Position numbers and translations under genes: made by a program
The notes under the pieces: generated by a model
The model's input: the letters and a program-made list of their open reading frames with translations, nothing else
The model's database searches: none
What the model was told of the DNA's origin: nothing
Assembly (NCBI GenBank): GCA_046563655.1
Contig: CM102283.1
Location: 7,750,001 to 7,814,000, forward strand
Direction of reading: 5' to 3'
Origin: Yuukianura sp. NJ FZ-2021
Lineage: Eukaryota
Length of the DNA stretch: 64,000 bases
Shown here: one piece after another, positions 12,067 to 51,467 of the stretch
Numbering within the stretch: position 1 is the stretch's first letter
Layout: each line of letters starts with the position of its first letter

Positions 12067-12757
12067 CGATCGCTTTCCAGCTGGCTGGTACAATTCTGCG
12101 ATCCGCATCGTGTTTTTGGTGTATTAGGGCCCTTAGACATGCTTAGAATTCCGGAAAAGATGCAATCAAAGTCAGAATCAAAGTGTAGGTTCTTAAGGGT
12201 CCGTCCCTGGGGGCCCTTTGGGCCTGATCTCTTTGGAATTTCCAACAATGGTTTGAGAATTTTTGTTTCAAGTTTCATTTTGTGCTAGGGGTGGCTGGTC
12301 CGCGTGATTTGAAAATCACGAACGAACAGAAACTTGACAACAGAGCTGCTTTGTATCCCTTAACCCAGCTTTTGGTTCTTGCAACTTTGAATTTGGAGGG
12401 GATGATGAAGTTTTGGTCCCTTGGAAGTTAAGCTCCAACTGTTATTTGGATGCAGCATATGAAAATTGTTTAGTTGTAGGACATAGCTTAACAATTTTTC
12501 GTCAGAAGCACCACATCCCATTTGGCTTGTAGTAGTTCACAATAGAACAGAGACTGCTGCCTCCTCAGTTCCAATTGTAACTAAACCTCTCCAGTTCCTC
12601 CAGTCTTTTGCTAACCAACCTCCTCCAGAAGTGGGTGGACCACTGGAACAGAAGAGATATTTTAGAAAAATACAAATCCAGTTTTCAAAAAAAATTTTCA
12701 AAAAGTGAATTTTAAATTTTAAGTTAGTACCTCTGTGTTTCATAAAAATCGGCCAAA

Positions 12758-20202: not shown

Positions 20203-23200
20203 ATGGCGGGCATCAAGTGCCTCATAGTCAGTTGTTGCATTTTGTTAATTTTTGGTGCGAGTGCGGTCCAAGCAGTAAAAGCAGGTAAACTTCTTTCAAA
20301 AATTTTAAATCAAAATTCAAAATTCCTTTTACAAAATAATTAAACAGTCAGAAATTCAAAATAATGTCGCTGGAAAAGTAACGAAACTATGTAAAAGAAA
20401 ATGTAATTCGGAGAAAAAGTATTTCGAATTTTTTCCTTTGCTCCTTTTTTTCAAAAAAATGCTTTTTTTAAGAAACAGCGTCAAAACCGCAAGGCCGACT
20501 TGCATTTATGAAACTTCCGGGGTCGAGTTCGTACATCCCCATCTTCGTGAACGACCAGGAAACGGCTTCTGCGCAAACGTCCTACAGTTACAAACCTCCA
20601 GAAGATGGCTACTCATATCCGAAGCCACCAACAAAAGATGGCTACTCCTATCCGAAGCCACCACCAAAAGAAGGCTATGTATACCCGAAGCCACCTTCCA
20701 GACTCCCGCCAATTCCCGAGTTCCCAACTCCAGATGAAGAAGAGGACCAAATAGACGCTGCCGGAGTGCCAGGGGTCACCCCAGGGCGGGAAGCAGAACA
20801 AACCACCAAACCGCCGGCAATTGGACTTGAAAATGACGAGGACATTGATTCCACAGGACAAGAGCCGGACAAGTTTCCACCAGGAGTATACGACCAACCA
20901 CAATTTGAAGGTATGCATTTTCAAAATTTTTGAAAATTTTTTAAATATAGTCAAATTCAATCGATTTGTTTCCAAAATTTTGTAGATTGTCACCCAACGT
21001 CATTGGATTGCATTCCTGGTACTCCAGGAGTTGACTATCCGACATATTCTGACGTTCCTAAAACAAATTTCAGATGCCCATCTATGTCCGGATACTACGG
21101 AGATGCCCAAGCACGGTAGGATTTTGAAATTTTGAATTGAAATTTTGAAAAATTGAAGTTTTGAAATAGTACCTAAAACTCGCGCCGTTTTAAATATTAA
21201 TTCAAAGCGACGGAGTCTCCAAGGAGGGAAAATTGAACAAAAAAAAAGCGGGAATGCAAATTGTCGTAATGGAATTTTCTCAGAATTTTTTGTTTAACTT
21301 TTTTTTAAATTCGTTTTTCAGATGCCAATCGTTTCACGTTTGTTTGAAAAAGCACGCCAAAGTTTTGCAGTACTCCTTCCTCTGTCCAAACGGAACAGTT
21401 TTTAGTCAAAACGACTTCATCTGTGTGTGGTGGCACGAATTCAAATGCGAAAACACGCCGACACTGTACCACTTGAATCGCTACCTCCACTGGGACGATG
21501 CTCGTGTTAGCCTTAAACAAAAAATAGGATATTTAAAACGCATGACCAAGCGACAACCAGAAAATGGTGGCATCAATCCCTTGAATTTCCCGCAACAACT
21601 TCTGCCCGCACTGAGCATTCGGCTGCCCGATTCCCGCCAGACGTACGGTCTTCTCCAGCCAACTCTCCCGCCAGTTTCAAAAACTTCCGTGTCAAAGACA
21701 GTATCTAGTCAGTATCAATCCCAATCACAAGGGTATGAAGATAACCACGACGCTCATGGCTTCATTGTCAACACTGGCTACAGTAGATCTACTCCGCAGC
21801 CCTGGAATCCGTGGGACGAAAAACCGACATCGGTAACTTTGGGTAGTAGCGAAGAGGAGGAGGATATCCAGCCTGGTGGATCTTATCCAACTCAAGCACC
21901 TCGGCGACCACGGCCACCGCCGAAACAGCCTCAGGGGTATCCGGATGAAGACGAATCGGAAGTACAACCAGGCGGATCTTATCCAACTCCAGCACCACCG
22001 CGACGACCGCGGCCACCGCCGAAACAGCCGCAGCGATATCCCGATGAAGACGAATCGGAAGTACAACCGGGGGGATCTTATCCAACACATCCTCCACCGT
22101 CGAACTATCCAAGACCGCGCCCAAAAGTAACTCAGCCACCGAGAAAGTATCAACCAGAACTACCGACACCAGAAGAAGACGAATCGGAAGTACAACCTGG
22201 CGGATCTTTTCCAACGACGACTCCTGCGCCGCCAAGATACAGACCGAAACCGATCACTCCAAAGCCATTCATACCCCCGCAACCTGCTGCATCAATGGAT
22301 GAAGATGAGTCGGAAGTACAACCTGGTGGATCCATTCCCACCATGCCAACACCAAAAACAAAACCACGCCCACGCATAACTCAGCCTCCAACAACTTACT
22401 TACCACCTACACCTAAGTACCGTCCCAGCAGTACAACTAAAAAACCGGACATTGGATTTACAGTACCGGACGAAGATGAAGAAGACGTACAAGCCGGTGG
22501 TTTTACCACCACAACTGCCCCAACGAAAGTAACAAGAAAACCTAAACCGACCTTAACATATTTACCGCCTTCAGAAGCTCCACCCCCACCACAGCAAGGG
22601 TATTCCGATTACCGGCCTCCGGTACAATATCGCGAACCGATTTATCAACAGAACTATGTAACTGGATACGTCGAACCTCAACTATCCTATTCCGTACCGT
22701 TGAGTTCTCCAGACCAAAGCTACTATCCCAAACCAGCACAAGTTCCGGCAAACCAGTACGATGGAGTAGCCATTTTCTTACCGCGAGATTCAAATGTTAT
22801 ACCAGCTAGGTCTCCGATTGGAACTTTACAGAAAGACTTTCTTCAAAATGGAGTCATTCCGGCACTGGGCCCGATCGAACCGGTACGAGCGATTAGCTAC
22901 AGCTTCCCACCAGCTCCTATTCCAATAAGCGTTGGACAGCAGCAACAGCTGATTCAAGCACAAGCGCGGTATCAGGAACAACTTCAAACGGATTCGAACT
23001 TTGAACCGTACCAGGTTCGGTACCAGCGACAGTCAAAACCAGTTGCCCAACAGCAAACCAGAAAGCAGGACCAGCGTTCAGCTCGGCAGTCAACGGTACG
23101 ACAAAGTCAGCAAGTACCGAAGAGACAAGCTGCTAGACGGAGCCAGAAAGCGAGCGATCCACTGGATGCTCAGGGTGCTTCAATGTCGTTTTCGGTAATG

Positions 23201-23854
23201 AAAAATCCATTTGAAAATCGGATCGTAGCTTCACCGATGAGAATTCAGTCGAGACAGTCGAACGATCTGGACACACAGACTCGGCCGCCACGTCAATCGT
23301 CACGACCGAGAAAAACTTCATCTCGGATGCCAGAAGGCATCAGAGCTCTGGACTTTCTGGATTCAAACGATGTGATTGACGATGAACCTCAACCAGCTTC
23401 CCAAGTATTTCCGATTGCTCTAGTCACTCCAGCTCCTACACCCTCACACATTCCTGTTTCAAGCGAAAGGTTTCAAGAACCGACATTTGACAACACCGAT
23501 TCAAATGGTCGTGTACCGGTAGTCCTTTCGGAACGTCTCAGAGATATTCTTCTGCCGGAAGAACTTGATGGGCCGCCGGAACTTGTTCGATCCCGTGAAG
23601 TTTTTGCACAGACGTTCATCAGTCGTGAAGACACGAACCCACGTGCCGTTGCTGCTCCAATCAGTAAGCAACATTCACCACCTCCAAAACCTCAGAAACT
23701 TCATTTTACTGTTGTAAATAGGCCGAAATATGTGAAACAAAGACCAATTGCCGTTGCAAAACCAAGGCCGCCGCGTCCAAGTACGACCATTCCGGACCAC
23801 AACCCGCGCCATGGAAAAAGAAATAGGTTTTGGCTGGATTTGACAAAATATTAG
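20203..23854 (+). CDS. Secreted chitin-binding type-2 (CBM14/peritrophin-A) protein, CPAP1-like, with long Pro/Thr/Gln-rich tail; 4 exons
   Basis: Exons 20203-20284 (signal peptide MAGIKCLIVSCCILLIFGASAVQA), 20479-20910, 20986-21115 and 21322-23854. Six-Cys domain IPGTPGVDYP..TNFRC..GYYGDAQARCQSFHVC..YSFLCPNGTVFSQNDFICVWWHEFKC. GYxYPKP cuticular repeats in exon 2. Confidence 0.92.
21850..22510 (+). repeat. Coding repeat DEDESEVQPGGS(Y/F/I)PT, about 6 copies with Pro/Arg-rich spacers
   Basis: gaagacgaatcggaagtacaacc recurs in the DNA, and the repeat is visible in the translation of ORF 21233..23854. Confidence 0.9.
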
Positions 23855-34369: not shown

Positions 34370-37300
34370 ATGTCTTTGCTGATTCCTTGGGCGTGGTCAG
34401 TTGTACTGTTAACCGGAGTTGTTGTTGGCCAGTCCAACTATGGAATCCAGGAAAACGACGTCGAGTACAAACACCAAGAAGGGCTTCCCGCCACTGCCAC
34501 TTTGGCCGGAAAAGTTACGCATCTCGATGGCCTTGAACCGCAAATCAAGCTGAACCGAACCGCCGCGGCTCTCAACTGTGCCGACGGTTCCATGAAAATC
34601 CATCTCAGTTTCAAAGAACCGTTTTACGGAATTGCTTATTCGGATTTCGACCGTAGCAGTGCCTGTTTTGCCCAAGGAACGGGCGACACTGTCGTAACGA
34701 TGGAACTCCCACTCAAGGGATGCGGAACGAGACAGGTACTTTTTATGTCACTTATGTTATTGCAATTGGTGTAATTGTAGGTGAGACGTGACATGCGCAG
34801 GCGCAGGGTCTAATTGGAGGTGAAATGTTTGTCGTGTAGGCGTTGAGGTTGCTGTTATAAATTCAATGACAGTTTCTTGGTATGGCGATGAACCAAAAGT
34901 GAATAATCTTTAGCTGACACAATGCAGATGGAATTTGGAGGTGGAATAGGAAATGTCCATTTTGAGCAAACGTCTAAATTAGGAAACTTGATCTTGCCTT
35001 GGTTTGCAAAGTGGTTGACTTAAGTTGAAATCAAAAGGTGGTGGCCTTTACCTCTTTGTTTTCTCAACCTACGCGCATGACCAAGTGTAAATCATGGGCT
35101 TAACCAGAAGGCTTTTCAATCCTAACTTTCAAAATTAAAAAAAAAAGCTTCAAAAAATAAAAAAAAATTGTTTGAAAACTTGACGGAAATTGTTTGCTTT
35201 GTTTCGAACAAGCAGAAGGTTCCGAGAAAAGCAAAAAAGCGTGGCAAACTTTGATTTTTTGTGGAAACTCGGCAATTTGATTTTAAAATTTTAATTTAAT
35301 TTTTTACCGTTTTTTGTCACAATCTCATTCCTGTTTCTAAAAAGTTCTTGGACAGTGTGCAAAATTTTTTTTTCAAAAAGTGAGCCGAGCCGCTACTTTT
35401 GGTTATCATTTTGGCGCAAATTCGGTCCAAATATGGCCGATGGAGGTCAAACTGTCTTTGCAAATTTTGAATTTTGAATGAGAGGGGTAAAATGAGACTT
35501 TGCAAAAATGGGGTGTTGAATTTATGTGTAGGTGGAAAAAGTTGTTGTCGACCGGGATTCTTGACCTGTCCAAACCAAATGCGTTGACCTTCGTCTCAGT
35601 CAACGGTTGCAACACTCCATAGGTTAACAACTCCTTTTTCAAAATAAGCAGGATTTGGTGCTATGAAACCGCCTCCTCACGAACACTTTTCCTCATTCCC
35701 CCTCCTTTTATTTGCAATCAATCAAAGTTTGACCATATTTGAACATACATCACGGACAAACGTTTAATTAAACTAAAACTTCTTCATGTTGTGGTGGGAC
35801 GTTTGAAAAAAGTTGCGTCAAACCACGCCATAATTTGGAAATAATAACAATAAAAAACATTTTTCATTTTTTTTTCAAAATTTGATGTAGTTTATGTTTC
35901 AAAAAGTGCTGCCTCTGGCGGCAAAATCTCTTTTCGGAAAGAAAAGACTCAAAAATGGATGCAGTTTAAAGTGATTGCAAAAATGGTTTTTGGCGAAGCA
36001 TGTCGTAATTTTTGCAAAAACAAAATACTACAAAAAAATTTTTGCAACATTTTTTTTTCGTTTTGTGCAACAATGAAACAGGCCTTCAAGTGTCTGTTAT
36101 TTCGATTTTCCAAAATTTCTTTTTTCCATTTTTTTTTGCAAGTTTTTGCAAAAATTCTGAAAACTACCTCCATCCTTTTGCTACTTTTCAAGTGTGGGAA
36201 ATTCACACTGGAATTTTGTCACGCTATGGACATTGTCATGTAAAATTTTAAATTGACTGGAACTTAAACTCTTAAGCATTTCCTAGAAAAGTCAAGAAAA
36301 AGATTTTGCTGAAGGTTTTCAATTGTTAAAATAATCATGCAATGCATTTAAAATTATGTAATTTTGGTTAAAATTTTTGTACTTCCTTCCGTTTTTGAAA
36401 TCATTCTGTTCAAATTGTTTGCAGGATCCACAACGTGTTTTTACCAACAACATTATTGTTCGTTTTCATCCTACATTGGAAATGGAGGGAGACGAAATCA
36501 TCACAATCGTTTGTCGCTACCCGCCTCCGATTGTGGAAGTTCCACCGCCAGTTCCAATGTAAGAACAGGTTTGATTTGTGCAAAAATTTCAAAGAAAGAA
36601 AGAAATTCGAAATTATTTGGGTTCGGCAATTTTTTTTTATCATGTTTTTCAAAAATTAATGTTGCATAAATTTATGACAGCATCGCTGTTCCAACTCCGT
36701 TCGTAGTATTACCAAAACCACTCAAGGAATTCGAAATTCTGCTCATCATTTGTTCAATTCTGTTCCTTGGATTGATGCTGCTTGGTCTTGGATGTTCTTA
36801 CTACTGTCTCCGGCATAGAAACATTCAGGTTGCCAGGAAACGACCATTCAGGTATGAATTTTCAAAATTCAGGATTACATGAAATCAAAATTTCAAAGAA
36901 AAAGAAGTTTTGGGATGCCTAAAATGATTCCACTTTTTTCTGCCTTTAGTGCTTTTGATGAAGATGAAAGTGAAAAGCAGTCAACGATTGAATCATTTCA
37001 AAATTTGAAAATCCCACGCGTCCATCCTCCATCTGAATCTTCATCTGAGGTGCCAATTGAAGAGACATTAGGTTCGGACTATCCTTCTTCAATTGAAGAT
37101 GCTCCACAACGTCCAGATACCGTTTCATCAGAGTACTCCGACACCCACTTCCAACTTGATACAGCCCTCATACCGCCGGCACGAGTCCGAAAACCCGAAT
37201 TTGAAGTGAACATGCGCGTAGCCAAACAACCGGAGACGCAAATGCGGTATGCCGAAACTGAAGGGTCCATCAGTTCACTGGAAACCGGGGTAGCTCGGAG

Positions 37301-38799
37301 CACGCACGTAGCTGACTTGCATCCGCCACCGAGAAAACGTTCACCGCCTGCTGTATTTTCAAAAGTAAAATTAATTTTTTGAAAAAAGTAAAAAAAAAAA
37401 AATACTTAATTTTTGAAATTTTTCATTTCTTTGAAGGCCCAGACTCACCAAGATGCAAAACGTAGTGTGCAGTCTACAGAGCATGTAGATATGCTCACTG
37501 TGGTTGATCGAGAAGACCTTACGCGGGAAACTCGGTACACGCAGCCACTGGCTGTACGAAAACCGGAAGTTTCTGTACACACTGTAGATGATGTGTACTT
37601 GCAGGTATATTTTGGAGCCAAAATTTAAAAAAAAGTTTTTCAAAAAATCTGAATTTTTTGAATTCCAGACAATAGTTGAAAGGCGGTTGATCGAAGACGA
37701 AGAACGTCGTACACGCGAAGTGACACAATTCTACAAAAAAGAAGATCCAAAATGGGATGTTACCATTAGGAGTCATCACACGCCGGCAGAAGAGGAAGCC
37801 TGGGAACGCGGTAAATTTCAAACTCAAAAACCAAATTTGAATTTTTTCAAAATTTCAAAATTTTGATGTTTTTTGTTACCAGGGTCAGAGACAACAGACG
37901 TAGCGTCGTCAATCGGTTGGTCCGCCGTTGACGAGCCTCCAACACGTCTCCGCTACGGTGTTGACCAAGAGCTATTAAACCGCCGTACGGACGTTACACG
38001 TCAAGATACGGAGAGGACCACGACTGTTTCCCGAGCAATGCAGAAACTACAGCAAGATGACACGCAGACTTGGAATGCCAAGTGGCAAGTGCTTCTGCGT
38101 GTCCTGGAGTCTCCGCCTCCTCCAGCATCTACATCTAGAGCTCACTCGACAACAGAAGACGAAGACTATGATGACGATGCTACCTCAGTATTGACGCCCA
38201 ACGACAGAGAAAAATGGCGTCGAATCATTACGACCGAATCGACACTGCGCAGTCTCCTTACAGAAGCAACAGTTAGAGAAGACTACGAACGGATTCGGCG
38301 GGATATTCGATACGAAAAATTATTCGAACCTGAGAAGTGGGACGTCATTATTCGCGTTTTAGCTCCGCCTCCGGCTGAACCGACGTATTACCGTGAAGAT
38401 TCTGTTAGTGAAGTGTCGACTGTTTCTTCTGGACCGGTTGCATATCGTCGCAAGAAGTCAACTGGAGAGAGCACCGTTGAAAGCCGAAAGTCAATGACTG
38501 ATGTGCGGTCAATGACAGAGATGATGGTAGATTTTGCAGCGATTGAAGGAGATGACGCTTCTTCGCTAATGTCGGGTCCTGGAGCACGTTCGGTCGCTGA
38601 TCGTTCTCAGACTGAAATTGTAGAGTTTGGACCAATGGATGACCAAGGAGAGTCGTCGGAAGTATTGAGTCGACGTGGCGGCACGTTTAGAACGCATGAG
38701 CAGAGTTCTTCGAGAGAAGTAAATGCCAGTCGAGGATTCGTCCAGGAAACGCAAGCATCCAAATCAACATTTTCCAGTAGTCGACTGACCCGCTTCTGA
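34370..38799 (+). CDS. zye: Single-pass ZP-N-domain apical matrix protein, zye-like; 7 coding exons
   Basis: Exons 34370-34735, 36425-36558, 36681-36851, 36950-37364, 37437-37604, 37669-37810 and 37883-38799. Signal peptide, then a 4-Cys ZP-N (LNCADGSMKI..FDRSSAC..LPLKGCGTRQDPQRVFTNNIIVRFHP..IITIVCRYPPP), a TM segment (ILLIICSILFLGLMLLGLGCSYYC) and a long acidic cytoplasmic tail. The symbol comes from recalled similarity to insect Zye and is less certain than the gene model. Confidence 0.8.
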
Positions 38800-39240
38800 A
38801 ATATAAAAAAAATGAGTAACTCTACTAATTCCTTCCAGCTTCAGTATAATTTCTAACAAAATGAACAATATAACCTGCCAAACTTACTTACGTTTTCTCT
38901 CTTTAGGTTAATCAGCGTTTTATACTGTAATTTATAAATAATAAATCATTAAACTAAACTTACACATAATAGGATTGATCTGTTTTTCAAACAAGCTATT
39001 GCGGAGAAGAAGTCTTATGAAGAATTTGAATGAATGTCTTAGCACAAACAATTAAAATGTAACAAAGCGTTTTTTTATATAAAAGACAAAGGCGTTCTCA
39101 TTATTTTTTATAACTAAATTAAGAAAATGTTTCGTTTTGTTGTTCCGTTACGTTCAGCTATTTGAAATATTAGTGTCTTTTCTTAAGACACAAAATTTTG
39201 AGGTTGCTGATTGATTGTTGAGAATTTTTGGTGAGTTTTT

Positions 39241-42088
39241 TTAGTTGTAGAGAAAGTTGAAGAGGATGAAAGCGGCGGGAGCCGTGACAAGCACAATGCT
39301 AGTCTGAATTTGGTTCGCAGCGCCTCGTCGGCGGGGTCGTGCAGTACATATTCCAGTCCCTGGTGGACAGAGTTGGCTTCGGCATTCGTATTTATGGTTA
39401 CATTTGGCGCCCACCTTTTTCAGATCACATTTGCCAGTATCTTCATACCATGTCAATTGGACCGATTGAGTCTTAGTTTCTTGTACTATTGCCGGGTGAT
39501 TTACTTGCGGAAGGCAAGCGCAAGTGAGTTTTCCAGTTGCATCCGCAACACAAGTAAGCGAAGTCAGCGTATCAACTCGGCAGGTATCTCCAAAACCTAG
39601 ATTCATTTTAAGAATTAATTCTACAATTTATAATTCAAAACCAGAACAAGAAGATTGACTATAAGCTTACGGCGATCACAGGCCTCCGTCCCATGGTTCA
39701 TCTTTGCGTCAATACAGTGTCCTTGCATGAAGTTCAAACCCTGGTCGCATTCACATTTTTCTTCGACGCAACGGAGCCCGGGACGCGAAGTGTTGTAATT
39801 TGCAGTCCCAGGAGGAGGGGCACATTCATCCACTCCTGTTGGAGTTTAAAAATTATTGCAGATCATTTGGCCATAACTTGAAGGAATCAGTTGTACTTGT
39901 AATATCCTTACCAGAATCCATGGCACAGGGATTACGGTGTAAATTGGGAATACACCCTCCGGTTCCATCCGGTTCATAAGACCAGATTTGTGGAAACCCA
40001 ACGGGGTTCTCACCGCATGCACATTTTCCGTTTTCATCACAGTGTTGTCCAGCACACAGATCATGATACAAAGTGTTGTCGAATTTACAGTTTTGTCCTG
40101 CTTTGAGCTTACATGCCTGAGCCCAATGTGCCCACTGGTATTGCTCACCGCAAGTACAAACCCCGTGCTCCTTGTTACACTGAAAGTTCTCTCCAAACGG
40201 ATTTCGACAAGCTCCGGTAACTAACAAAAATCACAATTCTTCAAACATGAACCAAGGTTATGACAGCGATGAGTCAAGGTTCACTTACCTATTCCAATGT
40301 TACAGGGCTGAATGGCGTCCTCAATTTCACAAGTTCCTTTATGCCACACATCCTTCCCCTGACAACGACATACACCATTGGTACACTTCAAGCCCGTCCC
40401 ACCCAAGCAGTCACCTAAAATTTGAAAAAAAAATACAGTATTCGAAGTTCAATTCCAATTACTATACAACAAAATAGAAACGGTAATAAAGATGACTCAC
40501 TGTCATCCTTGCATTTTGCACCATCTCCTCCTTGTCGGCGTGGAACACATTTCTTGGCCGCTGCGTCCCATCCAAACGTCTTGTACTTGCATCTACAAAC
40601 CAATTTACCACCTTCATCTACGCAGATCAACGAGGGGTCGGAGCATTCTGAAGAAAAAACAAACATGAGTAACGATGACTTTGCCCAGGGAAACTAATAC
40701 AATAGAATGCCGTACCCTGTTCGCCATCTCTTTTCCTGCATACTTCCCCAAAGTTCGGCAAATTGCTGCAGACCTTTTTCTCTTCGTCGTATACAGCGGG
40801 AAGAGCGCCGCAGCCGCACTTTCCCTCGTAACAGAGGAACTTGGCCAAACACTCTACAGAAAAAACAACGGCAACAATTACTTGTCGGTTATAAAGAAGG
40901 CTACTTATTAAGGTTTAGTTATATACACTAGATTCCAATTTGTCTATATCCATTCTCTACTTTAGTATATACATAAAGAACTTGTCACTAACGGTCATTG
41001 CTTGTACACTCTTCCCCAAGATCGCTTCCAACGCATTCCTTTATAACGTCGTCCCACTTGCGCTTTTTACCAGCGCAAGCACACTTTCCATCCACGCAAC
41101 TGAGTCCAGCTGCTGCTGAACATACTGTTGGAAGGAAATAAAAAGTTTCATCCAGAATTCCGAAACCAGCTAAGAAGTGAATGTGATGAATGATTTAACA
41201 TACGTTTACTAGGGCCACAAGGGTCGCCATGCAAAGCCTCGGTGCAATATTTTTTCTTTTCATTCCAATTCGGTTTCTCTGGAGGACAAGCGCATTTACT
41301 ACCCAAGCATGTACCGGTGATGCATTCTATACAAAAGACAGTAGTATTATCATTAAACAAGTGAAGCAGCTCATCTCAAATCAATTTGTTGTTGATAGTT
41401 TGTGATACAAAGAGTAACTCTTTGGTAATCTGATAACTCACGGATAGATTTTTTACACGCCTCGCCATATTGTAATTTCTCGCACCCGTTTCCTACATGT
41501 TTTGGTGTGTCCTCAGGGCACCGGCATGTATCCGGTTCATAGGGGTTGGACATAGGAGATGGACAAACAAAAGGGTTATAGCATGCTGAAAACAAATTTG
41601 AAACAACAGTATCATATGCCATTTGTATTAAAGTAAGATGTCCTGAATCGGTCTGTTGCAACCCCTTAACCATAAACATACAACGAGTCGACTTACGTTG
41701 AAGGTAGCTACAAAGTTCGCCATATTTCTTGACAGATGGAGGGCGTACACACGTGCCCTTGTTGTCCTTCTCGTCTACTGGTTTATAGGCACATTGGCAA
41801 CTATACGTTCCGGTGTCGTCGTCGACACAATGCATAAACAAGCTTGCATCACATTCCCTGAGCCAGAAGCCTAATTTATCCCCTGGATGCCCACCATAGT
41901 CTGCTATGTCTAGCATGCATTCCTGGGAAAAAATATACACATTATTCAAATGTACGTAAACGTCAGCAGCGTTTTGCGATAAGCCAAACCTCGTTGACTT
42001 TGTTGGCGTAGTACTTGTTCCGCCCATGGGCAATGTTCAATCCAATGATGAAGACATAGACGACGAATAAGGATGTGTGAGAGGTCAT
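39241..42088 (-). CDS. Cys-rich repeat (EB-module/EGF-like) surface protein A with signal peptide and C-terminal hydrophobic (GPI-like) tail; about 11 exons
   Basis: ATG at 42088 (MTSHTSLFVVYVFIIGLNIAHG). Exons 42088-41990, 41922-41697, 41585-41442, 41326-41204, then further phase-1 exons each encoding C..C..GKCxC....W....C....G..C. Last exon 39596-39241 ends RRRGAANQIQTSIVLVTAPAAFILFNFLYN. Confidence 0.85.
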
Positions 42089-43117
42089 GGTAGAAGTTCA
42101 CGTAAGAACAATGTAAGTTGATGAAGAACAGTTGACGCCTTACGACCTGTCACCTGAAAGAGCAAATGAAGACTGAACAAAGAAGAAAGAAGTGAACCCA
42201 AATGACTCAACTATTTGAGGGTCGCACAGGCAGCCACCACACAGTTTAAGAACAAACCTCGCCAGACATGGCCATCGTCATAGCAAAAATTCTTTTTCTT
42301 ACGTTAATTTTTTTTGAAAATATACGATATTTTTGAGAATATAAAAAATAATAATTTTGAAAATATATCCATAATAATTAAATATTATACTATATAATAT
42401 ACAGTGAGGGCCAGAAAAACCTCCACACTTCAAACGTAGCTTTTTGTTTATTTTGCTGAATTGTGGGGGGGGACGGTTTCAACAATAACCACAAAACGAT
42501 GGATTTGCATTAGATTTAAAATTAAAATAATATATAACGGTGTTACATTAAAATTTAAATTACACTGTGCCTGGATTAGGTACTTTAATATCATAACGAT
42601 TATCATAAAAGTATACTTTCTTAATACTAAAATTATAATTAAATTATAATTTATAAACTAAAATTTATCCCTAAAATGAGCTTACATAAATAAGTAATTC
42701 TACTGTCATATTTGCCAGCAGTTTTTGTTCACGATTTGATCAATTTGCCTAACTTCCTTCTTGTTCTAATTTTAGTTTTAATAATTTTTCCAAGAAATTT
42801 TTACGGAAAAGTACAAGTTGGGAAAGAGGTAACAATGAAGTTAGTGAATCAGCGTCTTTTAGGAAGAGCAATTAAAAGTTAAGCGTTTTTCTTGGACAAA
42901 GGACAATGCCAGGGTGTTGTCAAGTTGACATTGTCCACCCAAGCCAAATGACTCCAAAAGCCTAAAAAAAAGTACAAAATTGGGCTGACGATATGTTTTT
43001 CGGACAGTCCAGATTTGGAAATCGCTTCCGCTCAAACTTCTTCCAAGCCTATTGAATTCAACTTACTAACTAATCTAAAGTAAACTAACTAACTTAAAGT
43101 TGCTTAATTGAGCAATT

Positions 43118-43683
43118 ATGACCAAGGTGGCAACTGTCTTCGTCTGGGTCATTTTTGCACTGGGGTATTTCGTATTACCGAATCAGGCTGAAAAATGCAA
43201 TACAGCGGCAAATATCCCCGGACCCTACGGTTGCAAAACCCATTTGGAATTTTGGACGAAGCCAAATTCCCAAGGGTTTAGATACGGTAAGTGTGCCAAC
43301 TACTAAATTTTCTTAGCTTATTTAATTAAAGTAGCCTAACTCATAAAATAAAGTTAGGCATAATGATACAATCATATTAAAATCGGATTTAAAACGAAAC
43401 TTATTTTTTTGGTCTAGACCTGTTCTTGCCTGCTAACACGAAGAAGTGCTACGCACTGCCCTCGATAGACCAAGAACGGAATGACATGATGAGGACAGTA
43501 AAAACACCGATTTGTATCACAATCTTTTCACACCTTGGATGCGAGATGAGTGGTTATGTAGCTTTGAGAATGGATCCTACTAGTCCTTGTACCAAGGACT
43601 TCGACGTAGTTCCGACTTGCAGCAAGAGTACAGCCCCTGGCGTGCGCTGGTCCACAAGTATCTCAGCCATTAGACCATGCTAA
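43118..43683 (+). CDS. Small secreted beta/gamma-crystallin-like protein 1 (144 aa), 2 exons
   Basis: Exons 43118-43286 and 43418-43683. Signal peptide, then LEFWTKPNSQG, KCY, RNDMMRTVKT, CITIFSHLGC and SISAIRPC, resembling Greek-key F..PNFQG / ND..SS / ISS.R motifs. Confidence 0.8.
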
Positions 43684-44104
43684 CTTCTCATTCTAAAATG
43701 TCAAAGACAATACAAGGTCAAGTAGAAAGAACAGCATGGAAATGTTTCATGGATTTCAAAGTTTCAAGTAGTGAGGTCAAATAGTAAAAACACAGTAGTA
43801 AGTTTCAAGTAGTACGATCAAGTAGTAACTATTAGTAAAAATCACATGATGATTGTAGTTCTCCCAAAAATTGAAAGGTGCAATAAAATTAAAAATTAAC
43901 AAACTTTTAGTGTTAATTAATTTCCATAATTAAATAGTGGAGTCTCGTTAATTACAACGTTACTATTATAAGGTCAAATTGGTTTTGAAGTTAAAAGAAA
44001 GTGTGTTGCTCTATAAAAGTTTTATGTTTTTTAATTGTGAGTTGAGCATAAGGGCTTTGGAAATTTTATGTTGCCCTTTTTTTAGCGTAATGTTTCAATC
44101 GCTT

Positions 44105-46903
44105 TTAATGGAAGAGGACATTGGCAAGGATCCAGGCAACCGGGACCTTGAACGCCACGAGAGGCCGAATTCGGCTGCCAGCGCCAAATCGGCGCCTTGC
44201 TACTCCACAACGTGACGTGGACGGTTCACACCAACCACTTTTGCATTCGTATCCTCTGGCGCACCTTGACCCAGTGCTCTTCAGTTGACATTTCTTTTCA
44301 GAGGCATTCCATTCCATAGGTACCTTCACTCCTTTTGCAATACTGGGATCTATTTCGTATGGAAGGCAAAGACAAATGGATACTCCGTTTCCAGTATTGG
44401 TGCAAGTCAGCGAAGTCATAGGGTCAATTTGACACGTATTGCCAAAACCTAAACAATCAAAATCGTCATTAATGAACTTTACATTTCATATTTAGCGCCA
44501 CAAATTGTTTTAGAATATGTAATAATTTAGATTATATAATGTAAGGTTACGATCGTCGCAGTTCTCTTCTCCATAGGTCATGTTTGCCTTGATGCAGTAG
44601 CCAGATACGAAGGACAAACCACCTCCACATTGGCATTTTCCGTCGATACAAACGAGGCCTTGGCGGGAAGAATTGTAGTTACCAGGAGGGATACATTCTT
44701 CGGGTCCTGTAAGAGTAAATGAATGTTAAAGGTATGTCGTTACTTAGATATGTTGAACTTTGATGGAACACTCAAGTTTGTAGTGTATCATGCTTACCAC
44801 TTCCCTCATAGCAGGGACGATTGTAGTAGTTGAATATGCATCCATGTTCTGGTTCAGATGACCAAATTCGTTCCACCCCTTCAGGTGATTTAGGACATAC
44901 ACATTTCCCGTCTTCCTGAGCGCACTGTCCGCTAGCGCACAGGTCATGATGGTAAGTCTTATTTTGGACACAGTTTTCCCCTGCAATGAGTTTACATGCG
45001 TTGGCCCAGGACGCATACTCAGTGTTATTAGAACAAGTGCATAACTTTTCCTTCACATCGCAGCGCAAGTTTGCTCCTACTGGAACTTGGCAAGGGTCAG
45101 CTGAAATTTACAATCAAGTACAATAATACTCACAGTCTTTTTATCTCGTCGGTTGGTAGGATACAAATAGAACCAAATCGGTTGAATTTTACGTACGTTT
45201 TCGCTTTGGGTCACACTTTCTCATGCTAGTCTTTAATGCACATTTTCTTTCATGCCACAGTCGATCGGAAGCACAAGAACAGATTCCATTTGTACACATT
45301 AAGTCGGCCTGAGGATAGCAGTCATCTGTAGAAAGAAAGTACAAATTAACATATAAGAGCATGTGATAATTTGATGTTCGAGTGGTTTACCATGATCCTT
45401 GCAAGGTCCACCAGCTGATGCTGATGGCTTTGTAACGCAGGAAAAGTTCGCACTGTCCGGCTTCTGTGTTTTGAATTTGCATTGGCACGTTTTATCACCG
45501 CTTTGGCCATTACTGAGACATGCAAACGTGTCGTGAGAGCATTCTGGAGGAAAGTCTAATTTTAGTTACGATGACTACCAGAACAGAAGGAATACTAACC
45601 AGGGAAGTCATCTAAGCGTGGAACATAGGGTTCACAGTGTTCGCCATAGGTTGGTCGGTCCACGCATTCTATCAACTTGGCGTCGAACCTAGCTGGATGG
45701 TAGCACTCACACATGTTGCGTGGTGGAGAACATCTAAGCGTTCTCACACATTCTGCGTACGAACAACAAGAAACTCAACTGCTCAACAAGTGGATTAACT
45801 GTTAACGTTTCTTGATTTTGGCTACGTTCTGTCCAACGTAAGTCTAATTCTTTAGCTCACGGTTTTTGTCGTCGCAAGCCTTATCGTAACCTTGGCCACA
45901 TTCCTTATGATTGGCGTCCCAGTTTGGCTTATTTGCTATTGAGCACACACACTTTCCTCCAATGCAAGAAAGTCCTAAGTCGGTATAACATGCTGTTGTC
46001 CGGAAATCAAACAAAGTCTCTCCAGAATTCAAGTTGGTTGCATTCAAATTCAAAGTGTAAATGGTAGGAAAACTTACGTTTGTCGGCATTGTCACATGGT
46101 TCTCCATAATGCGCTCCTTCGCAACGTTTTTTCCGTGCATTCCAGTGAGGCCTATTTGCGGTGCATTCACACTTTCCCTTGGTGCACATTAAATTTGCTG
46201 CGCAATCTAGAGATTCCGTTAGAGATTATTAAGTATTCGAATTTAATTAACCTTAATCGACAAAGTTTCGATTTTGATTCGACGCCTTACCGTTAGCATT
46301 TTCAATACACGTGTCGCCGTAAGCACGTTTCAGGCAACTGCTTGTGGTGGCATTGTGAATTGGTCTGTCCCGTGGACACTCGCAATTTTCATTTTCATAG
46401 GGACGGTATGGACAAACATACGGATGACGGCATGCTAAGGAAGAAAAGAACGAACAATTAAACAAATTTTTGGAAGCACTAACAGCTTAATTGCTAAAAC
46501 TTACGACAAACTCTTTATCCTACATGTAAAAGCTAAAAAGAATAAGGTTACACTTACGTTCAAGGAAACTACATGGTTCGTCATAACTCTTGCTAGGCGG
46601 TGGAGGTAAACACTCATTGGCATTGTTCGGGTCGCCCATATACTCACATGTACACCTAAAAGTTGTGTCTTCTTGTTCCTTACACCGTAGAAACAGTCTT
46701 GGATCGCATTCCATGAGAATGAATCCCATTCTATAACCTACGTCATCCACGGCAGGGTCGTTACCCGAAACGGGCAAATCACGCCAACAAAGTTCACGGA
46801 TGTTCGTAAGGCTCCATTTGTAAGCATTTATAGGATCCTGCGCTCCGTCACCACCGTTAATCCCAAGGAGGAAGATTAGTGCATAGATGGTGTAAGAGGT
46901 CAT
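44105..46903 (-). CDS. Cys-rich repeat surface protein B (paralog of A); about 10 exons
   Basis: ATG at 46903 (MTSYTIYALIFLLGING). Colinear with A: WANACKLIAGENC..HHDLCA vs WAQACKLKAGQNC..YHDLCA, and GFGNTCQIDPMTSLTC vs GFGDTCRVDTLTSLTC. Last exon 44448-44105 ends RRRFGAGSRIRPLVAFKVPVAWILANVLFH. Confidence 0.85.
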
Positions 46904-47854
46904 GGTTGAATGTCAAGTGAGGAGAGTGCAGTGGTCAATGAACAGTTGACAACGTTTGATGACCCAATCAGCTGAGGAAACTTGTGAAGAGACAAAGAAT
47001 TCAGATTCAAAACACGTTTCTGTCTTTGCTTATGGGTGAAGTAACGACTGACGACCGCCATTGTAACCGCATTGTGTAGCACTACACACACCTTGTATAG
47101 TTTGTAGTTACAATAGGTGGCTACACCTATTGCGGCAACATTTGTACTAAGCAGAGCCTCGCCTGAAGTGACAACACAAGTAGTCGCATAGTGTAACCAT
47201 CTTGTAGCCTTAAAGTGGCTACACTGTGCGGCTACAATATAGGTAGTTAAAGCTTATATCAACTTCGTGTGTTATTGCAGCGTTGGTTGCCCAGGCAGCC
47301 ATCAAATTCATCATCCGCTTTACCTTCTCTGTCAGACACGGACATTTCGAAAGGTTTTCTTGTTTCTCCAAACATGTAATGTTTAACTTTAATGATGAAT
47401 TTTAACATAACTATTTAGTTTATTGGTTAGTGTTACTCTTTTAGTAATTTTATATTTAATATCAATCAGTTAAAGATTAAAACGCCGAAAAAATTGCAAA
47501 AATGCAACCCATGTATTTACAACTTCTGATTAGTCTATAAATACGTAGTTTTTTTTTCGCAATTTTTTACTAAAAGCATATTATGGAAAAGTACAAGTTG
47601 TGAAGAAGTTAACTAATCACCATTTTAGCAAGAACAATTAAAATTTAAGTTTTTTTCTTGGACAGAGAACAATGCAAAGGCGTCGTTTAGCGTCAAGTTG
47701 GTAAGTTGAAAGAGATTGCAAAACTTTGGTGTTGGAAACTTTGGTATCTCAGTTCAGATTTGTTTCCGCAACTGTTCCTTTCTTTCCTATTTTTCCATTT
47801 AAACTTTGTAATAACTTAAAACTTTAGCCGTAAAGAATTCTATTTTGAGAAATT

Positions 47855-48675
47855 ATGATCACGTTGCTAATTCTGTTAGGCGTGGCTTATTTCTTGGTGT
47901 ATTTGGTGTCATTTGGTAATGGAATGCCTTGCCCTGGTGGTGGGGATAAGTTCTATGGATGCACTAATCATTTTGAATTTTGGTCGGAGCCAAATTTCCA
48001 AGGGCTCAAGCACGGCAAGTACTTAAACATATTAATAATTGTCTCTGTTGAATTAATCCGTTTTGTTTTAATTTTAAGTTCAAAATAATGGAGGCGGTAT
48101 CGTTAAAACACTTTTTTTTTGTATGGGCGTTCGTATTTCGTACCCGTTTAGTATTTGGTAAAAAATTATAGCGGAGAATTTGCAAAAATTTAGCCTTTTT
48201 TTGATAAAAAAAAATTGTCCCAATTTTGCATGGTTAGTTTAAAAACACGAGTTACCGCTTGTTCTTACAAAAAGGCGTTTAAAACGGACGCAAACCTCAC
48301 ATTTCTTTTAGATTATTTAATAGATACATTTTAAGATTTCTTTGTTTTAGCACTTTTTAAAAATGTGTGCCATTTATGTTTGTAGAGCTGTACCTTCCTG
48401 CCACAAGTAATAAGTGCTACCCTGTGCCGATGGCAGCGCAGGATCCCAACTGGCCATACGACAGAAACGACATGTTACGATCTGGAAAAATAGCAACATG
48501 CATCAGAATTTATGGACAAGCGAACTGCGAGGAAAACAGCGGTAAACCACTAACAGTCAAACCCGGATCCCCTTGTCTCCGTGACCTCAACAAACCCGAA
48601 TGCAATGTAGGAGTAGCTCCTAATCAGTATTTGGGAAAAGACTTTTCATCTTTCAGATATGCCGACAATTGCTAA
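47855..48675 (+). CDS. Small secreted beta/gamma-crystallin-like protein 2 (149 aa), 2 exons, GC-AG intron
   Basis: Exons 47855-48014 and 48386-48675. FEFWSEPNFQG, NKCYP, RNDMLRSGKIATCIRIYGQANC, VKPGSPCLRDL, DFSSFRY. Paralog of 43118-43683. Confidence 0.8.
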
Positions 48676-48791
48676 AGTTTCATTCACCAAAATTCAAACT
48701 AAGCTGAGTTTAAAAATTGCACATTTTACCGTCAATTTGTAAGCCAGGGTTCCTTGACAACGAAAAATAAATTTTCTTTAAAAGGTTGAGT

Positions 48792-48900
48792 AGTATTACC
48801 AAGGTAACTAAACAAAATGACACACCGCGTTGTTACTAGAAAGCGCGCATAGAAAGCGCATGTGTATTTATGTTTAGTTACCTTGAGTATTACCAAGGTA
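48792..48900. repeat. Inverted/direct repeat knot (MITE-like fragment)
   Basis: Inverted pair caaggtaactaaaca ... tgtttagttaccttg, plus direct repeat agtattaccaaggta at 48792 and 48886. Confidence 0.55.
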
Positions 48901-49582
48901 AATAGAATACTAGAGGTAAGGTCCTTTAGGATTGTTTTTTTCAAAATATCGTTACTATGGGAATTTTTTCATCGAAATTAGCTCATTTACAGTGTTGTTC
49001 AACATTTTCATCATTTTAGCCTCAAAACTTTCTCTGTTAACTAAAAAATAACTTAAAAACTTTGATAAACCTGTATTTTCTCGGAATGACGTCACTGCGA
49101 GAGTTTGTTTACATTTCAAAAATCGGTTTTTGGTCGCTAGGACGTTTTTGCCACCACCTGGAGTATTACCTTCTTTTTTGACAAAAAAAAAACAAAAACA
49201 AAAATTGGTACCAATTCGTATACAAAAAAAAATTCGGCTGTATTGTTATGACTGCGATGCAATGAAATGAAGGACACTCTTTTTTGCAAAATCGAAAAAA
49301 AAAGATGAGGTATTACTCAACCTGTTCAAAAAAACCAGAGTCAACAAACCTTTGTGTAAATATTCATTCAGAAAATACAAAAAGATTTGGGTTAGGCAAA
49401 AGTTCTGGCAAAATTGAAAATATAAGACAAAATCTGAAAAATCTAAAAAAAAAAAAAGTTTGTTGCAAAACTAACGAGTTGTATTTTATTTTTAAAAAAT
49501 ATCAAAACTTAATAAGTAAATTTTGACTTTACATTAAAACGTTATGCTTAAGACATCGTTTTTTTTTGTCCATGTTTTGATT

Positions 49583-51467
49583 CTATTTCTTATTTTGGGA
49601 CTTTTTCTGTTTGGATTTGTCCGATTTCGACTGAGAAACTGCACTCGGTTTAGCTTTCGGATCAATTTGATTCAACGGTTGTTTAAAAATGACACGTTCT
49701 TCATCTTCTTCATCTTTTTTCATTTGCTCAGTTTTGGCTTCCTCGATTGCAATTTGTTGCTTGGCGGCTTTAATCAGCGTTTTGATGTCAACTGTTTCAA
49801 AAATAAACTTTTCAAGGACTGTTTTTTTCAAAATTCAGAAATGTCAAAAAATTTACCGATCTTGACACGTTCTTCACAGAGATCATCGTTGACTTTGTCC
49901 ATCGTGTCACTCACATCCCAGTGACTACCGTGAGTCGTTCCAGCCGCTTTTCGACGCTTGCGTCGATCACGAACTTTGTGCAGCCAGCGATAAAAGTACT
50001 TCCGCATCAAAAAAATTTCGCGTTCCTCTGCCTCTCTTCGAGCAACGATAACATTGGCTAAAAAGTTTCCAAACAATTTTGGTAATCAAAAAATTAAATT
50101 TTAACGGATTCATAAAATTCGTTTTTTTATTATATATAATTTTGAAAACCTTACGTAATTGCTCCCATTTTTTGCGCATGAGCTCTCTGTACTCTTCAGC
50201 TCTTCCCTTCAGTTTACTTTGAAAAAATTGTTGCACTTTTTCCAAAACGCCTTGATTTTGAAGCTGTGCATTGATTTTGGCTTGGTTTTGATGTTCCTCC
50301 TTTTTAAATAAACAAAAACAACAACATTTTAGGTTTCAAAATTTAAGTTCAATTTTCAAAAAACAAAATTTTGAACCTTGAGCCGTTTGTATCTTCTTCT
50401 GATAATTTTGTCCACAATACGACGATATTCTACAGTTTCCTCCTTTTGTAAAATGTGCTTAATCAAATTTTTTCGTTGCTCGATTTGTGGTAACTTTACT
50501 CGGTCGTAAGCAACTCTGCGCATGTTTTCGCGACAATTTGAGCAACCACGCATTGCTTCCAAGATGTCAGCCTTGATCCGGTCGGCTTGCTCTCGTCGGA
50601 CTTTGTTTCTCTTGAACACGTCAAGTAACCTATGGTTAAAAAATATAAAGTTCATTTAAGATTAAGTTAATCAAAACTAAGTTAATTAAAATCAAAGTTA
50701 AGATTTAACACTAGTGACAATCGCATACTTGCTCCTCCGCTGTTCGTCCACATCTTTCCTTTTAGCCAAAACGTCTTTAGAGTTTTGCTTCGGACGAGCT
50801 TCCTTCCAAGCCGCAAGCGATTTCAGTTCTGTCAAATGCTGTTGACGCTCCAGCGTTTTTCGATCCTAAGAAGTTACCATTTTTGAAATTTTTCAAAACT
50901 TTTTGAAAAGTTTAACTTCAAAACTGCTGTATTTTGAAAATGTGGACCTCATTTCGTATTAGTTCTGCCAGCCGCCCCTTTTGCACCGCTCCAGAACATT
51001 TTCGAAATTCATTGAATTTTTCAAGCGAACAAACCACGTGATCTTCGTCTTTCAAAAGTCCTTGCTCAACCAAAAATGGTTTGATGGTTGGACGACTAAT
51101 GAAGTGCGCCAAATTCGGATCGTGCAGAGGATCGTAGGAACTCAACTTCAAAACACTTTCCAAATTATACTCGTCCTCAATTTTGAATCTTGGTTTTGGC
51201 CCGTTGTCTTCCAGAACCTAAGTTTTCAAAACCAAAAATTTCAAATTTTTTGAAAATTTGAATTCCTTTTGGAAAACTTACATCATGGCCAAGTTTTCCT
51301 CTTGTATAGTAGACTCCGTCGCCCATGCCTCCGATGACATCCGGAAACTTAGATTCCAGAAGACGTTCGTTAAATTTTGGGAAAAGAGGCTTGATCACTC
51401 CCGGAACGGCGAATTCTGAAATCTGAATTTCGTTTCGCAGTTTGTCAATTCGCGTTTCCTGGGGCAT
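49583..51467 (-). CDS. FSIP2-like protein (fibrous sheath-interacting protein 2 N-terminal motif plus coiled coil), multi-exon
   Basis: ORF pieces 51467-51281, about 51217-50948, and further short exons to the stop at 49583. VYYTRGKLG..YDPLHDPNLAHF..LVEQGLL..HVVCSLEKFNEFR resembles the FSIP2 N-terminal LHDPHL / VVCSLxExNxYR motif and is followed by charged helical segments. Confidence 0.72.

Follow-up and report, generated by a model that had tools for sequence, protein, structure and literature searches.

An old tandem duplication of a divergently transcribed gene pair for predicted cysteine-rich extracellular proteins in Yuukianura sp. NJ FZ-2021

We observed that the window (the whole 64-kb stretch of DNA analysed here) carries two collinear units, at 39241-43683 and 44105-48675, each made up of a large gene on the minus strand, a spacer and a small gene on the plus strand. 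The start codons lie at 42088 (C1, minus strand), 43118 (A, plus strand), 46903 (C2, minus strand) and 47855 (B, plus strand), giving repeat periods of 4815 and 4737 bp. The first spacer (42089-43117) puts 1029 bp between the divergently oriented start codons of C1 and A, and the second (46904-47854) puts 951 bp between those of C2 and B. This confirmed the preliminary description, which had proposed a twice-occurring arrangement of minus gene, spacer of about 1 kb and plus gene with a period of about 4.8 kb, and which had placed the four ATGs exactly at these positions. When all exon segments were searched against the 64-kb window using tblastn, the paralogous exons were recovered collinearly, the lowest E values being 1e-25, and the window showed no third copy of them.

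The C1 gene (42088-39241, minus strand) consists of 11 exons (42088-41990, 41922-41697, 41585-41442, 41326-41204, 41124-40993, 40853-40716, 40647-40501, 40414-40289, 40220-39912, 39835-39671 and 39596-39241) and encodes 655 aa with 70 cysteines. The C2 gene (46903-44105, minus strand) has 10 exons (46903-46558, 46434-46291, 46206-46078, 45992-45861, 45752-45600, 45543-45391, 45325-45197, 45100-44798, 44706-44551 and 44448-44105) and encodes 663 aa, also with 70 cysteines. The predicted architecture is the same in both, namely a signal peptide, 11 six-cysteine C-x-C modules and a GPI-type tail. The frames of 1965 nt (C1) and 1989 nt (C2) run without an internal stop, and the introns are all GT-AG. 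Nine intron positions are common to the two genes, all nine in phase 1; C1 has an extra first intron, the donor of which (GTTTGG) is weak.

Hydropathy analysis placed the hydrophobic windows of C1 and C2 essentially at residues ~3-20 and in the last ~20 residues only. The exception was one 11-residue window over the cut-off at C1 residue 198, and there was no internal stretch of membrane-span length. The tail of C1 reads G-A-A, followed by 6 polar and then 17 hydrophobic residues, and that of C2 reads G-A-G-S, followed by 4 polar and then 17 mostly hydrophobic residues. Signals for GPI anchoring comprise an N-terminal signal peptide and, at the C-terminus, small residues, a short polar spacer and a terminal hydrophobic tail, with no cytoplasmic tail. 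Judged by hydropathy and by reading the tails by eye, C1 and C2 agree with this rule and are predicted to be GPI-anchored, as had been suggested in the preliminary description of a GPI-like surface protein.

Each large protein has 11 modules, each with six cysteines and a C-x-C, and most of the spacings fall within the range of the EGF-like pattern, C-x(4-10)-C-x(4-9)-C-x(4-10)-C-x-C-x(8-14)-C. The module-encoding exons are symmetric and in phase 1. Using single exons as queries, which split the modules, EB (PF01683) was matched in 4 of 10 exons at 11.8-16.9 bits, below its gathering score of 24.3. The matches were always to model positions 28-52 of 52, the C-terminal half, which is expected if introns split each module. 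In a Pfam scan of six larger C1/C2 segments there was no EB match; the queries throughout were unspliced pieces, so that a module interrupted by an intron entered the scans only in part. With exon and segment queries, EGF reached 12.6 bits (cut-off 21.5) and EGF_3 reached 12.2 bits (cut-off 28.5), and no Pfam family reached its cut-off for any piece. The Atlas cluster nearest to the large protein is an arthropod family that has EB in 100% of its members (score 0.90).

We consider that the large protein is most likely exposed at the cell surface and built of 11 six-cysteine modules of EGF/EB-like type, with a predicted GPI-type anchoring signal. Repeated six-cysteine C-x-C modules are also seen in the EB/EGF multi-module proteins of arthropods and nematodes, and in the Dumpy DPY and EGF families. 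Unlike in the EB family, however, the N-terminal region and the last exon of C1 and C2 match nothing, and we know of no GPI-type tail as a feature of that family. The EB family is not known to have an established function, and among the papers listed for EB modules the term occurs in no title or abstract.

The small gene A (plus strand) has two exons, at 43118-43286 and 43418-43683, joined across a GT-AG intron, and encodes 144 aa, with a predicted signal peptide and a mature part of ~120 aa containing 8 cysteines. B (plus strand) also has two exons, at 47855-48014 and 48386-48675, and encodes 149 aa with 8 cysteines. The B intron is GC-AG, with the donor GCAAGT, and is identical to the A intron in position and phase. 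The small gene product is most likely a secreted, disulphide-bonded protein of ~120 residues. The earlier claim that both products of a unit look extracellular agrees with the N-terminal hydrophobic signals found in all of them, and with the C-terminal hydrophobic tail and missing internal membrane span of the large proteins. The large and small proteins are mutually unrelated, as had been stated, the best blastp E between them being 0.24. With open frames and usable splice sites throughout, the four genes appear to be intact, again in line with the first description.

A beta/gamma-crystallin-type Greek-key fold is possible for the small protein and is weakly supported. B carries W-x4-F-x-G, then N-D-x-x-x-S, and an F-S-S-F-R end, stretches that we take to resemble the Greek-key signature. 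In Pfam, neither PF00030 nor PF03995 was found in the exon-1 or exon-2 pieces of A and B (at E<=1 for the exon-2 pieces), and a PDB sequence search with the small protein gave no match at E<=10. A custom HMM of 23 myxobacterial domains scored B at 4.3 bits, a value reached by 0 of 500 shuffles, and A at -1.1 bits, reached by 87 of 500. Using hhalign, the first half of the small protein was aligned to the Greek-key motif with a local score of 18.8 and a probability of 4.5%, and 1 of 200 column shuffles reached this score. Atlas feature matches at 0.90-0.92 included clusters in which 16-18% of the members have Crystall and 11-15% have Inhibitor_I36, with recognition below the reliability mark. 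AlphaFold2 gave a mean pLDDT of 34.1 for the exon-2 piece and a pLDDT of 44.8 for a second single-exon piece, and both values are too low for a fold search. In size, A and B are like the single-domain secreted members of the superfamily (PF00030 Crystall, PF03995 Inhibitor_I36), at about one domain, whereas their eight cysteines set them apart from it. Examples of such single-domain proteins are Myxococcus Protein S, the yeast killer toxin WmKT and Streptomyces SKLP.

We also evaluated homologues in the sequence collections. A word-based search in a database without a close relative of the organism gave no homologue candidate for B exon 2; a search of this kind that compared C1 exon 9 with longer proteins produced 7 candidates, but none of them scored. 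The A/B exon-2 profile, run against 1.84 billion representatives, had 4 matches at E<=1e-3. Two of these (P0001 and P0004) are long, repetitive proteins to which the profile aligned in several short segments, and we judged them not to be homologous. In two scans of metagenomes the pattern was matched 198 and 179 times, and no match could be confirmed. The best database match of a conserved neighbour gene was only 68% identical, indicating that the collection has no close relative, and the blank homologue searches are thus weak evidence.

When the paralogs were compared, C1 and C2 were identical at 256 of 637 positions (40.2%), with 67 of 70 cysteines aligned, and A and B at 50 of 140 (35.7%), with 8 of 8 cysteines aligned. 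Once the cysteine columns were left out, the identity fell to ~33% for C1/C2 and ~32% for A/B, which bears out the description of these paralogs as diverged apart from cysteine and motif residues. Exon by exon, identity is 31-38% in the N-terminal, membrane-distal half of C1/C2 and higher, at 40-52%, in the C-terminal half. The dN values (NG86) were 0.58 for C1/C2 and 0.60 for A/B, and the dS values of 1.27 and 1.62 were saturated. The near-equal dN together with the saturated dS is as expected from one duplication event, and the identities of 40% and 36% together with the saturated dS establish that this event is old. The dN/dS ratios of 0.37-0.74 are fairly high but unreliable, since dS is saturated; for the same reason we rejected dN/dS as a test of positive selection. 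The co-duplication of both genes, claimed earlier, is shown by the exon collinearity and by the near-equal dN of C1/C2 and A/B. The locus is a single old tandem segmental duplication of a divergently transcribed two-gene unit, and all four frames are still open.

Parts of C1, C2 and B were also found on contigs from the run of a second study (X4), where 0-15 differences were counted per 513-981 nt. As parts of the locus are present in the contigs of two studies, it is not an artefact of one assembly. Across six X4 contigs, we counted 31 differences from the window in ~4250 bases, at a depth of ~5 and with no flank of comparable quality for comparison. These data are thin, and they gave no sign of unusual polymorphism.

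The best-conserved DNA of the unit is non-coding. A block of ~110 nt is present in both spacers, at 42801-42920 (~200-320 bp upstream of the A ATG) and at 47581-47686 (~170-275 bp upstream of the B ATG); the two copies match by blastn at E 2e-15, with 88 of 106 aligned bases identical (83%). By comparison, the identity was 48% at four-fold sites (55 of 114), 40% in homologous introns and 29% in random spacer windows. Outside the block, the similarity of the spacers is not above background. The block sits on the side of the small gene, ~700 bp from the ATG of the large gene. A GTAAGT is read within ~10 bases after copy 2, which may thus be a non-coding first exon. There was no Rfam match at the block; the one match in 38.5-49.5 kb was sub-threshold (snoU85, 17 bits vs 41) and lay inside a C1 intron. 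The RNA folding z-scores of the block ranged from -1.5 to +1.1, and 1 of 15 pairs was compensatory; in the absence of a folding signal and with this one compensatory pair, we rejected an RNA gene. A third copy of the block that had been seen by eye near 39040-39100 proved to be no more than an AT-rich word of 12 bases (E 0.35), and we rejected it as well. From the conservation of the block it is clear that control of the small genes, at least, has been maintained. Shared control of the large genes does not follow from this, and the block may serve the small gene only.

With moderate confidence, we favour an old segmental duplication of the ordinary kind, which copied a divergent neighbour pair and left four genes that are under purifying selection and probably co-regulated. 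Both gene pairs would be under purifying selection on the cysteine scaffold and free to change elsewhere, and A and B would have in common either a control element close to the promoter or a first exon that is non-coding. More tentatively, at close to even chances, the same cells probably express both head-to-head genes of a unit. Such co-expression would place one tethered and one soluble component at the same extracellular surface or matrix, and the two units would probably have divided expression or specificity between them. B depends on a GC donor and C1 on the weak GTTTGG donor of its extra intron, and one or both genes could be decaying. These donors would also fit a reading in which one unit, or single genes in it, are unexpressed relics with frames left open by chance or by the recency of decay. 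We regard this reading as very improbable: functional GC donors usually read GCAAGT, and relics of the age of this duplication would not be expected to have stop-free frames of 1965 and 1989 nt spread over 10-11 exons, to retain 67 of 70 cysteines or to show a dN far lower than dS. The two genes of the unit might instead be functionally unrelated, each with its own regulation, and have been copied together by ordinary tandem duplication. Tandem segmental duplications that span more than one gene are common, which counts for this explanation, as do the distances of the block, which are 200-320 bp to the small gene and ~700 bp to the ATG of the large one, and the remaining spacer, which is no more similar than background. 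However, all four genes were retained, whereas redundant copies are usually lost, and both products appear to go to the same compartment, the secretory pathway and cell surface. On balance, we think that chance neighbourhood is rather unlikely, a minority reading that still deserves weight.

A closer relationship between the two products, along the lines of the ligand-receptor pair suggested in the preliminary description, may also be considered, in which the small secreted protein would be the ligand of the GPI-type protein encoded next to it, linkage would keep the alleles matched, and the two pairs would have co-evolved their own specificity. Several observations are consistent with such cognate recognition: neither gene was lost from either unit while dS became saturated, the orientation and the spacing (1029 and 951 bp) were kept, both products are extracellular by their signals, the divergence falls outside the cysteine scaffold, and the membrane-distal half of the large protein is the less conserved one. 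However, a spacer of 1 kb offers little room for rearrangement, and adjacency would therefore be expected to persist even without selection. The near-equal dN is given by a single duplication event as well, and the 31 differences in ~4250 bases of the six X4 contigs, thin as these data are, carry no sign of unusual polymorphism. We consider cognate recognition a possible but distinctly unlikely explanation. The same low probability holds for its fullest form, a self-contained recognition module in which a Greek-key eight-cysteine ligand and a GPI-anchored EB/EGF receptor would share one control region and form two pairs of private specificity. In the favoured reading of an old segmental duplication, direct binding between the large and small products is not required by any evidence; the long retention of the four genes and of their arrangement would also fit a functional coupling tighter than the one we propose.

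Known linked ligand-receptor loci include the Brassica S-locus (SCR/SP11 with SRK) and Ciona s-Themis with v-Themis. As in these, a small cysteine-rich secreted protein is here predicted to be encoded within 1 kb of a surface protein, and there is more than one copy of the unit, with divergence between them. Those loci are defined by binding, allelic hyper-polymorphism and matching tissue expression, properties that are hypothetical for the present locus; the protein families also differ, and the C1/C2 surface protein is without a signalling domain. The bidirectional gene pairs and tandem duplications of animals likewise have divergent starts ~1 kb apart, a unit copied in tandem and a conserved element in the spacer. 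The only difference from this general class is the age of the duplication, with four genes kept. Among the papers listed in literature searches, none was seen to describe such a gene pair.

If the large and small proteins were indeed cognate partners, this would give the first function for EB-type modules and a compact model of how a linked ligand-receptor pair duplicates and diverges. A complete recognition module would parallel, in an animal, the logic of the plant S-locus, and would do so with two protein families that have no assigned function. The 110-nt non-coding element has outlasted silent-site saturation, and is a candidate promoter or enhancer. Together, the locus documents an old, well-preserved duplication of two genes, and with it two lineage-restricted families of predicted extracellular proteins.

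To model the genes, we located stop-free segments, scored splice sites and compared the two paralogues. The four start codons proposed in the preliminary description were correct, at 42088 (-), 43118 (+), 46903 (-) and 47855 (+). The large Cys-rich genes lie on the minus strand: C1 (42088..39241) has 11 exons and encodes 655 aa, C2 (46903..44105) has 10 exons and encodes 663 aa, and each has 70 cysteines and no internal stops. The small secreted-protein genes lie on the plus strand with two exons each, A (43118-43286 and 43418-43683) encoding 144 aa and B (47855-48014 and 48386-48675) encoding 149 aa. All four frames are open in these sequence-based models, so that the genes look intact, as had been proposed. 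When every exon segment was compared with the whole window by tblastn, we observed that the paralogous exons were collinear (E down to 1e-25), bearing out a head-to-head unit that occurs twice in tandem (C1 with A, and C2 with B). No third copy of either gene was found in the 64-kb window.

The introns of C1 and C2 are all GT-AG, and the two genes have nine intron positions in common, each of them phase 1. Bounded by these phase-1 introns, the internal exons measure 123-309 nt in multiples of three, like shuffled module exons. One further intron, of 67 nt and with a weak donor (GTTTGG), lies close to the 5' end of C1. The single intron of B matches that of A in position and phase but has the donor GCAAGT, making it a GC-AG intron.

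We further estimated the divergence of the two units. C1 and C2 were identical at 256 of 637 positions (40.2%), and 67 of their 70 cysteines aligned; A and B were identical at 50 of 140 (35.7%), and all eight of their cysteines aligned, in agreement with the claim that both pairs are strongly diverged with the cysteines kept. The NG86 estimates were dN 0.58 and dS 1.27 for C1/C2, and dN 0.60 and dS 1.62 for A/B. By these estimates the duplication is old, with silent sites at saturation. The dN values of the two gene pairs are nearly equal, as fits a single event that copied both genes, and along with the collinear exons they uphold the proposed co-duplication. At the DNA level just five short patches could still be recognized between the units. 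Together, these comparisons establish, at the level of sequence, that a head-to-head two-gene unit was duplicated in tandem long ago, and that four open frames and the cysteine scaffolds have been kept.

The strongest DNA match between the units is non-coding, and lies in the spacers of about 1 kb that separate the two genes of each unit (42801-42920 against 47581-47686, E 2e-15). It is located 200-320 bp upstream of the small-gene ATG in both units. Of 106 aligned bases, the two copies of this block shared 88 (83%), in an alignment with two gaps, of 12 bases and 2 bases; the corresponding identity was 48% (55/114) at four-fold degenerate sites under identical residues and 40% in the nine homologous intron pairs. 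Random spacer windows (n=143) gave a mean identity of 29% and a maximum of 42%. The comparison points firmly to selective maintenance of a non-coding element in each spacer. The block had no Rfam family match and no folding signal on either strand (z -1.5 to +1.1), and only one of 15 predicted pairs was compensatory; for this reason we interpret the block as either a control element acting at the DNA level or a first exon that is non-coding. GTAAGT follows within about 10 bases of the block in unit 2, and in both units an AG stands just before the small-gene ATG, preceded by a branch-point-like CTAAC or TTTAG. These splice-like sequences make a 5'UTR intron between the block and the small-gene ATG plausible. 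On the side of the large genes, C1 and C2 showed moderate likeness across the first 100 bases upstream of their ATGs.

The hydrophobic stretches of C1 and C2 were essentially confined to the N terminus and the extreme C terminus, although in C1 an 11-residue window at residue 198 exceeded the hydropathy cut-off as well. Before each C-terminal tail come small residues, G-A-A for C1 and G-A-G-S for C2, and then a brief polar spacer, a layout that we take to be a GPI-anchoring signal. Under this assumed rule, the earlier prediction of a GPI-like large protein held. Between the termini, each protein has 11 six-cysteine modules with a C-x-C hallmark. Pfam searches with pieces of C1 and C2 gave no match above the cut-offs. 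The C-terminal half of the EB module was matched in four of ten single exons at 11.8-16.9 bits (cut-off 24.3), and such sub-threshold half-module matches would be expected if each intron splits a module. For exon 9, the nearest protein-language-model Atlas cluster was an arthropod family with EB in all members (score 0.90), with a recognition value of 1813 that marks weak evidence. The AlphaFold2 model of the exon-9 pair had a pLDDT of 44.8, too low for use. Surface proteins with EB/EGF modules are of a known kind, and C1 and C2 resemble them in their six-cysteine C-x-C modules and sub-threshold EB matches.

A and B each begin with a signal peptide, and their mature chains comprise about 120 residues, eight of them cysteines. 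Neither is related to the large proteins (best blastp E 0.24), as originally noted. Pfam searches with both small-gene exons gave nothing credible; the sole row, Peptidase_M74 in A exon 1, was sub-threshold (11.8 bits, cut-off 25). Neither a PDB sequence search nor a word-based homologue search found relatives, and a profile search of 1.84 billion representatives gave four weak matches, two of which were rejected as long repetitive proteins matched over several short stretches.

The small proteins had been described as beta/gamma-crystallin-like. Among the Atlas feature matches were clusters in which 16-18% of members carry Crystall and 11-15% carry Inhibitor_I36 (scores 0.90-0.92), at a recognition value of 2083, under the tool's mark. 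B contains W-x4-F-x-G followed by N-D-x-x-x-S, and ends in F-S-S-F-R; these motifs resemble what we take to be the Greek-key signature. With a custom HMM built from 23 of 27 myxobacterial PF00030 matches (each at least 70 residues), B scored 4.3 bits, reached by 0 of 500 shuffles, and A scored -1.1 bits, reached by 87 of 500. Using hhalign, the first half of A/B aligned to a Greek-key motif with a score of 18.8 (probability 4.5%), which 1 of 200 column-shuffled queries reached. The AlphaFold2 model of the exon-2 pair had a pLDDT of 34.1. A beta/gamma-crystallin identity is plausible, though not established. The family of small proteins has no recognized relative, but databases cover this lineage poorly.

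Among the sequencing runs listed, the locus was present in five DNA runs from two studies and in no RNA run. Contigs of run X1 covered both units with 0-5 differences per piece. In run X4, which belongs to the second study, six contigs reached portions of C1, C2 and B and differed at 0-15 positions over 513-981 bases each; two independent data sets thus contain the locus. In X1 and in X4 alike, one contig joins 42909, at the end of the first block copy, to the matching point of the second copy at 47651, skipping 4741 bases with just 23 letters on the shorter side. This joint could reflect sequence variation in the block, the assembly graph, or recombination that left a haplotype with a single unit. 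Just downstream of B, 48700-51300 is repeat-rich with many joints and loose ends, and its summed contig depth (7000-10500 in X1, 180-710 in X4) is consistent with a high-copy mobile element.

The window comes from an invertebrate animal, and its introns are short and GT-AG. Several innexin-like open frames were seen at 4-15 kb, one of them confirmed by Pfam (12746-13261, E 1.5e-19). In the innexin gene region, the 18 bases of 13528-13545 (-) are identical to part of the AT-rich core of the second block copy (E 9e-5, short-word blastn); this could arise by chance where DNA is AT-rich, or mark a common binding-site word. The chitin-binding peritrophin-A domain that Pfam identified at about 21.3 kb belongs to a protein (21194-23854) in which proline-rich repeats form a long region, and Pfam also placed HEAT repeats of RRP12 at about 55.9 kb. 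A vWA-domain gene on the minus strand (16140-17980, open frame 428 aa) was patchily distributed, with 48-51% identity to many cyanobacterial and myxobacterial vWA proteins, 44-53% to scattered eukaryotes (corals, sea anemones, amphioxus, a copepod, a fungus) and 68% to the best match overall. The upstream neighbour (34370-38799, +) starts like a signal peptide, contains a stretch resembling a membrane span at about 36.7 kb, and has a long tail rich in acidic residues and serine; its first exon resembles, by eye, the start of a zona-pellucida domain, and Pfam on three of its exons gave nothing at E<=0.01.

For a conserved neighbour gene the best database relative was only 68% identical, indicating that the collections hold no close relative of the organism, so that the absence of homologues counts only weakly towards novelty. 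In two metagenome scans, none of the 198 and 179 pattern matches was confirmed. Titles and the opening parts of abstracts yielded no published description of such a gene pair.

Head-to-head pairs and multi-gene tandem duplications are both common, and the C1-A/C2-B unit is both. We consider it fairly likely that the locus has this ordinary reading, a duplicated neighbour pair that is probably co-regulated. Both genes of a unit would then be co-expressed, and their products would share one extracellular compartment as their site of action. That the two genes are neighbours by chance and separately regulated seems unlikely to us. A 1-kb spacer is a small target for breakpoints, so adjacency is expected to persist without selection; this tells against a cognate ligand-receptor pair. 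None of the evidence makes binding between the two products necessary, and we regard such a pair as doubtful at best. Partial decay is very improbable in our judgement. All four genes are retained, which argues that each has a function. The locus offers two testable leads, the conserved block and a possible cognate pairing.
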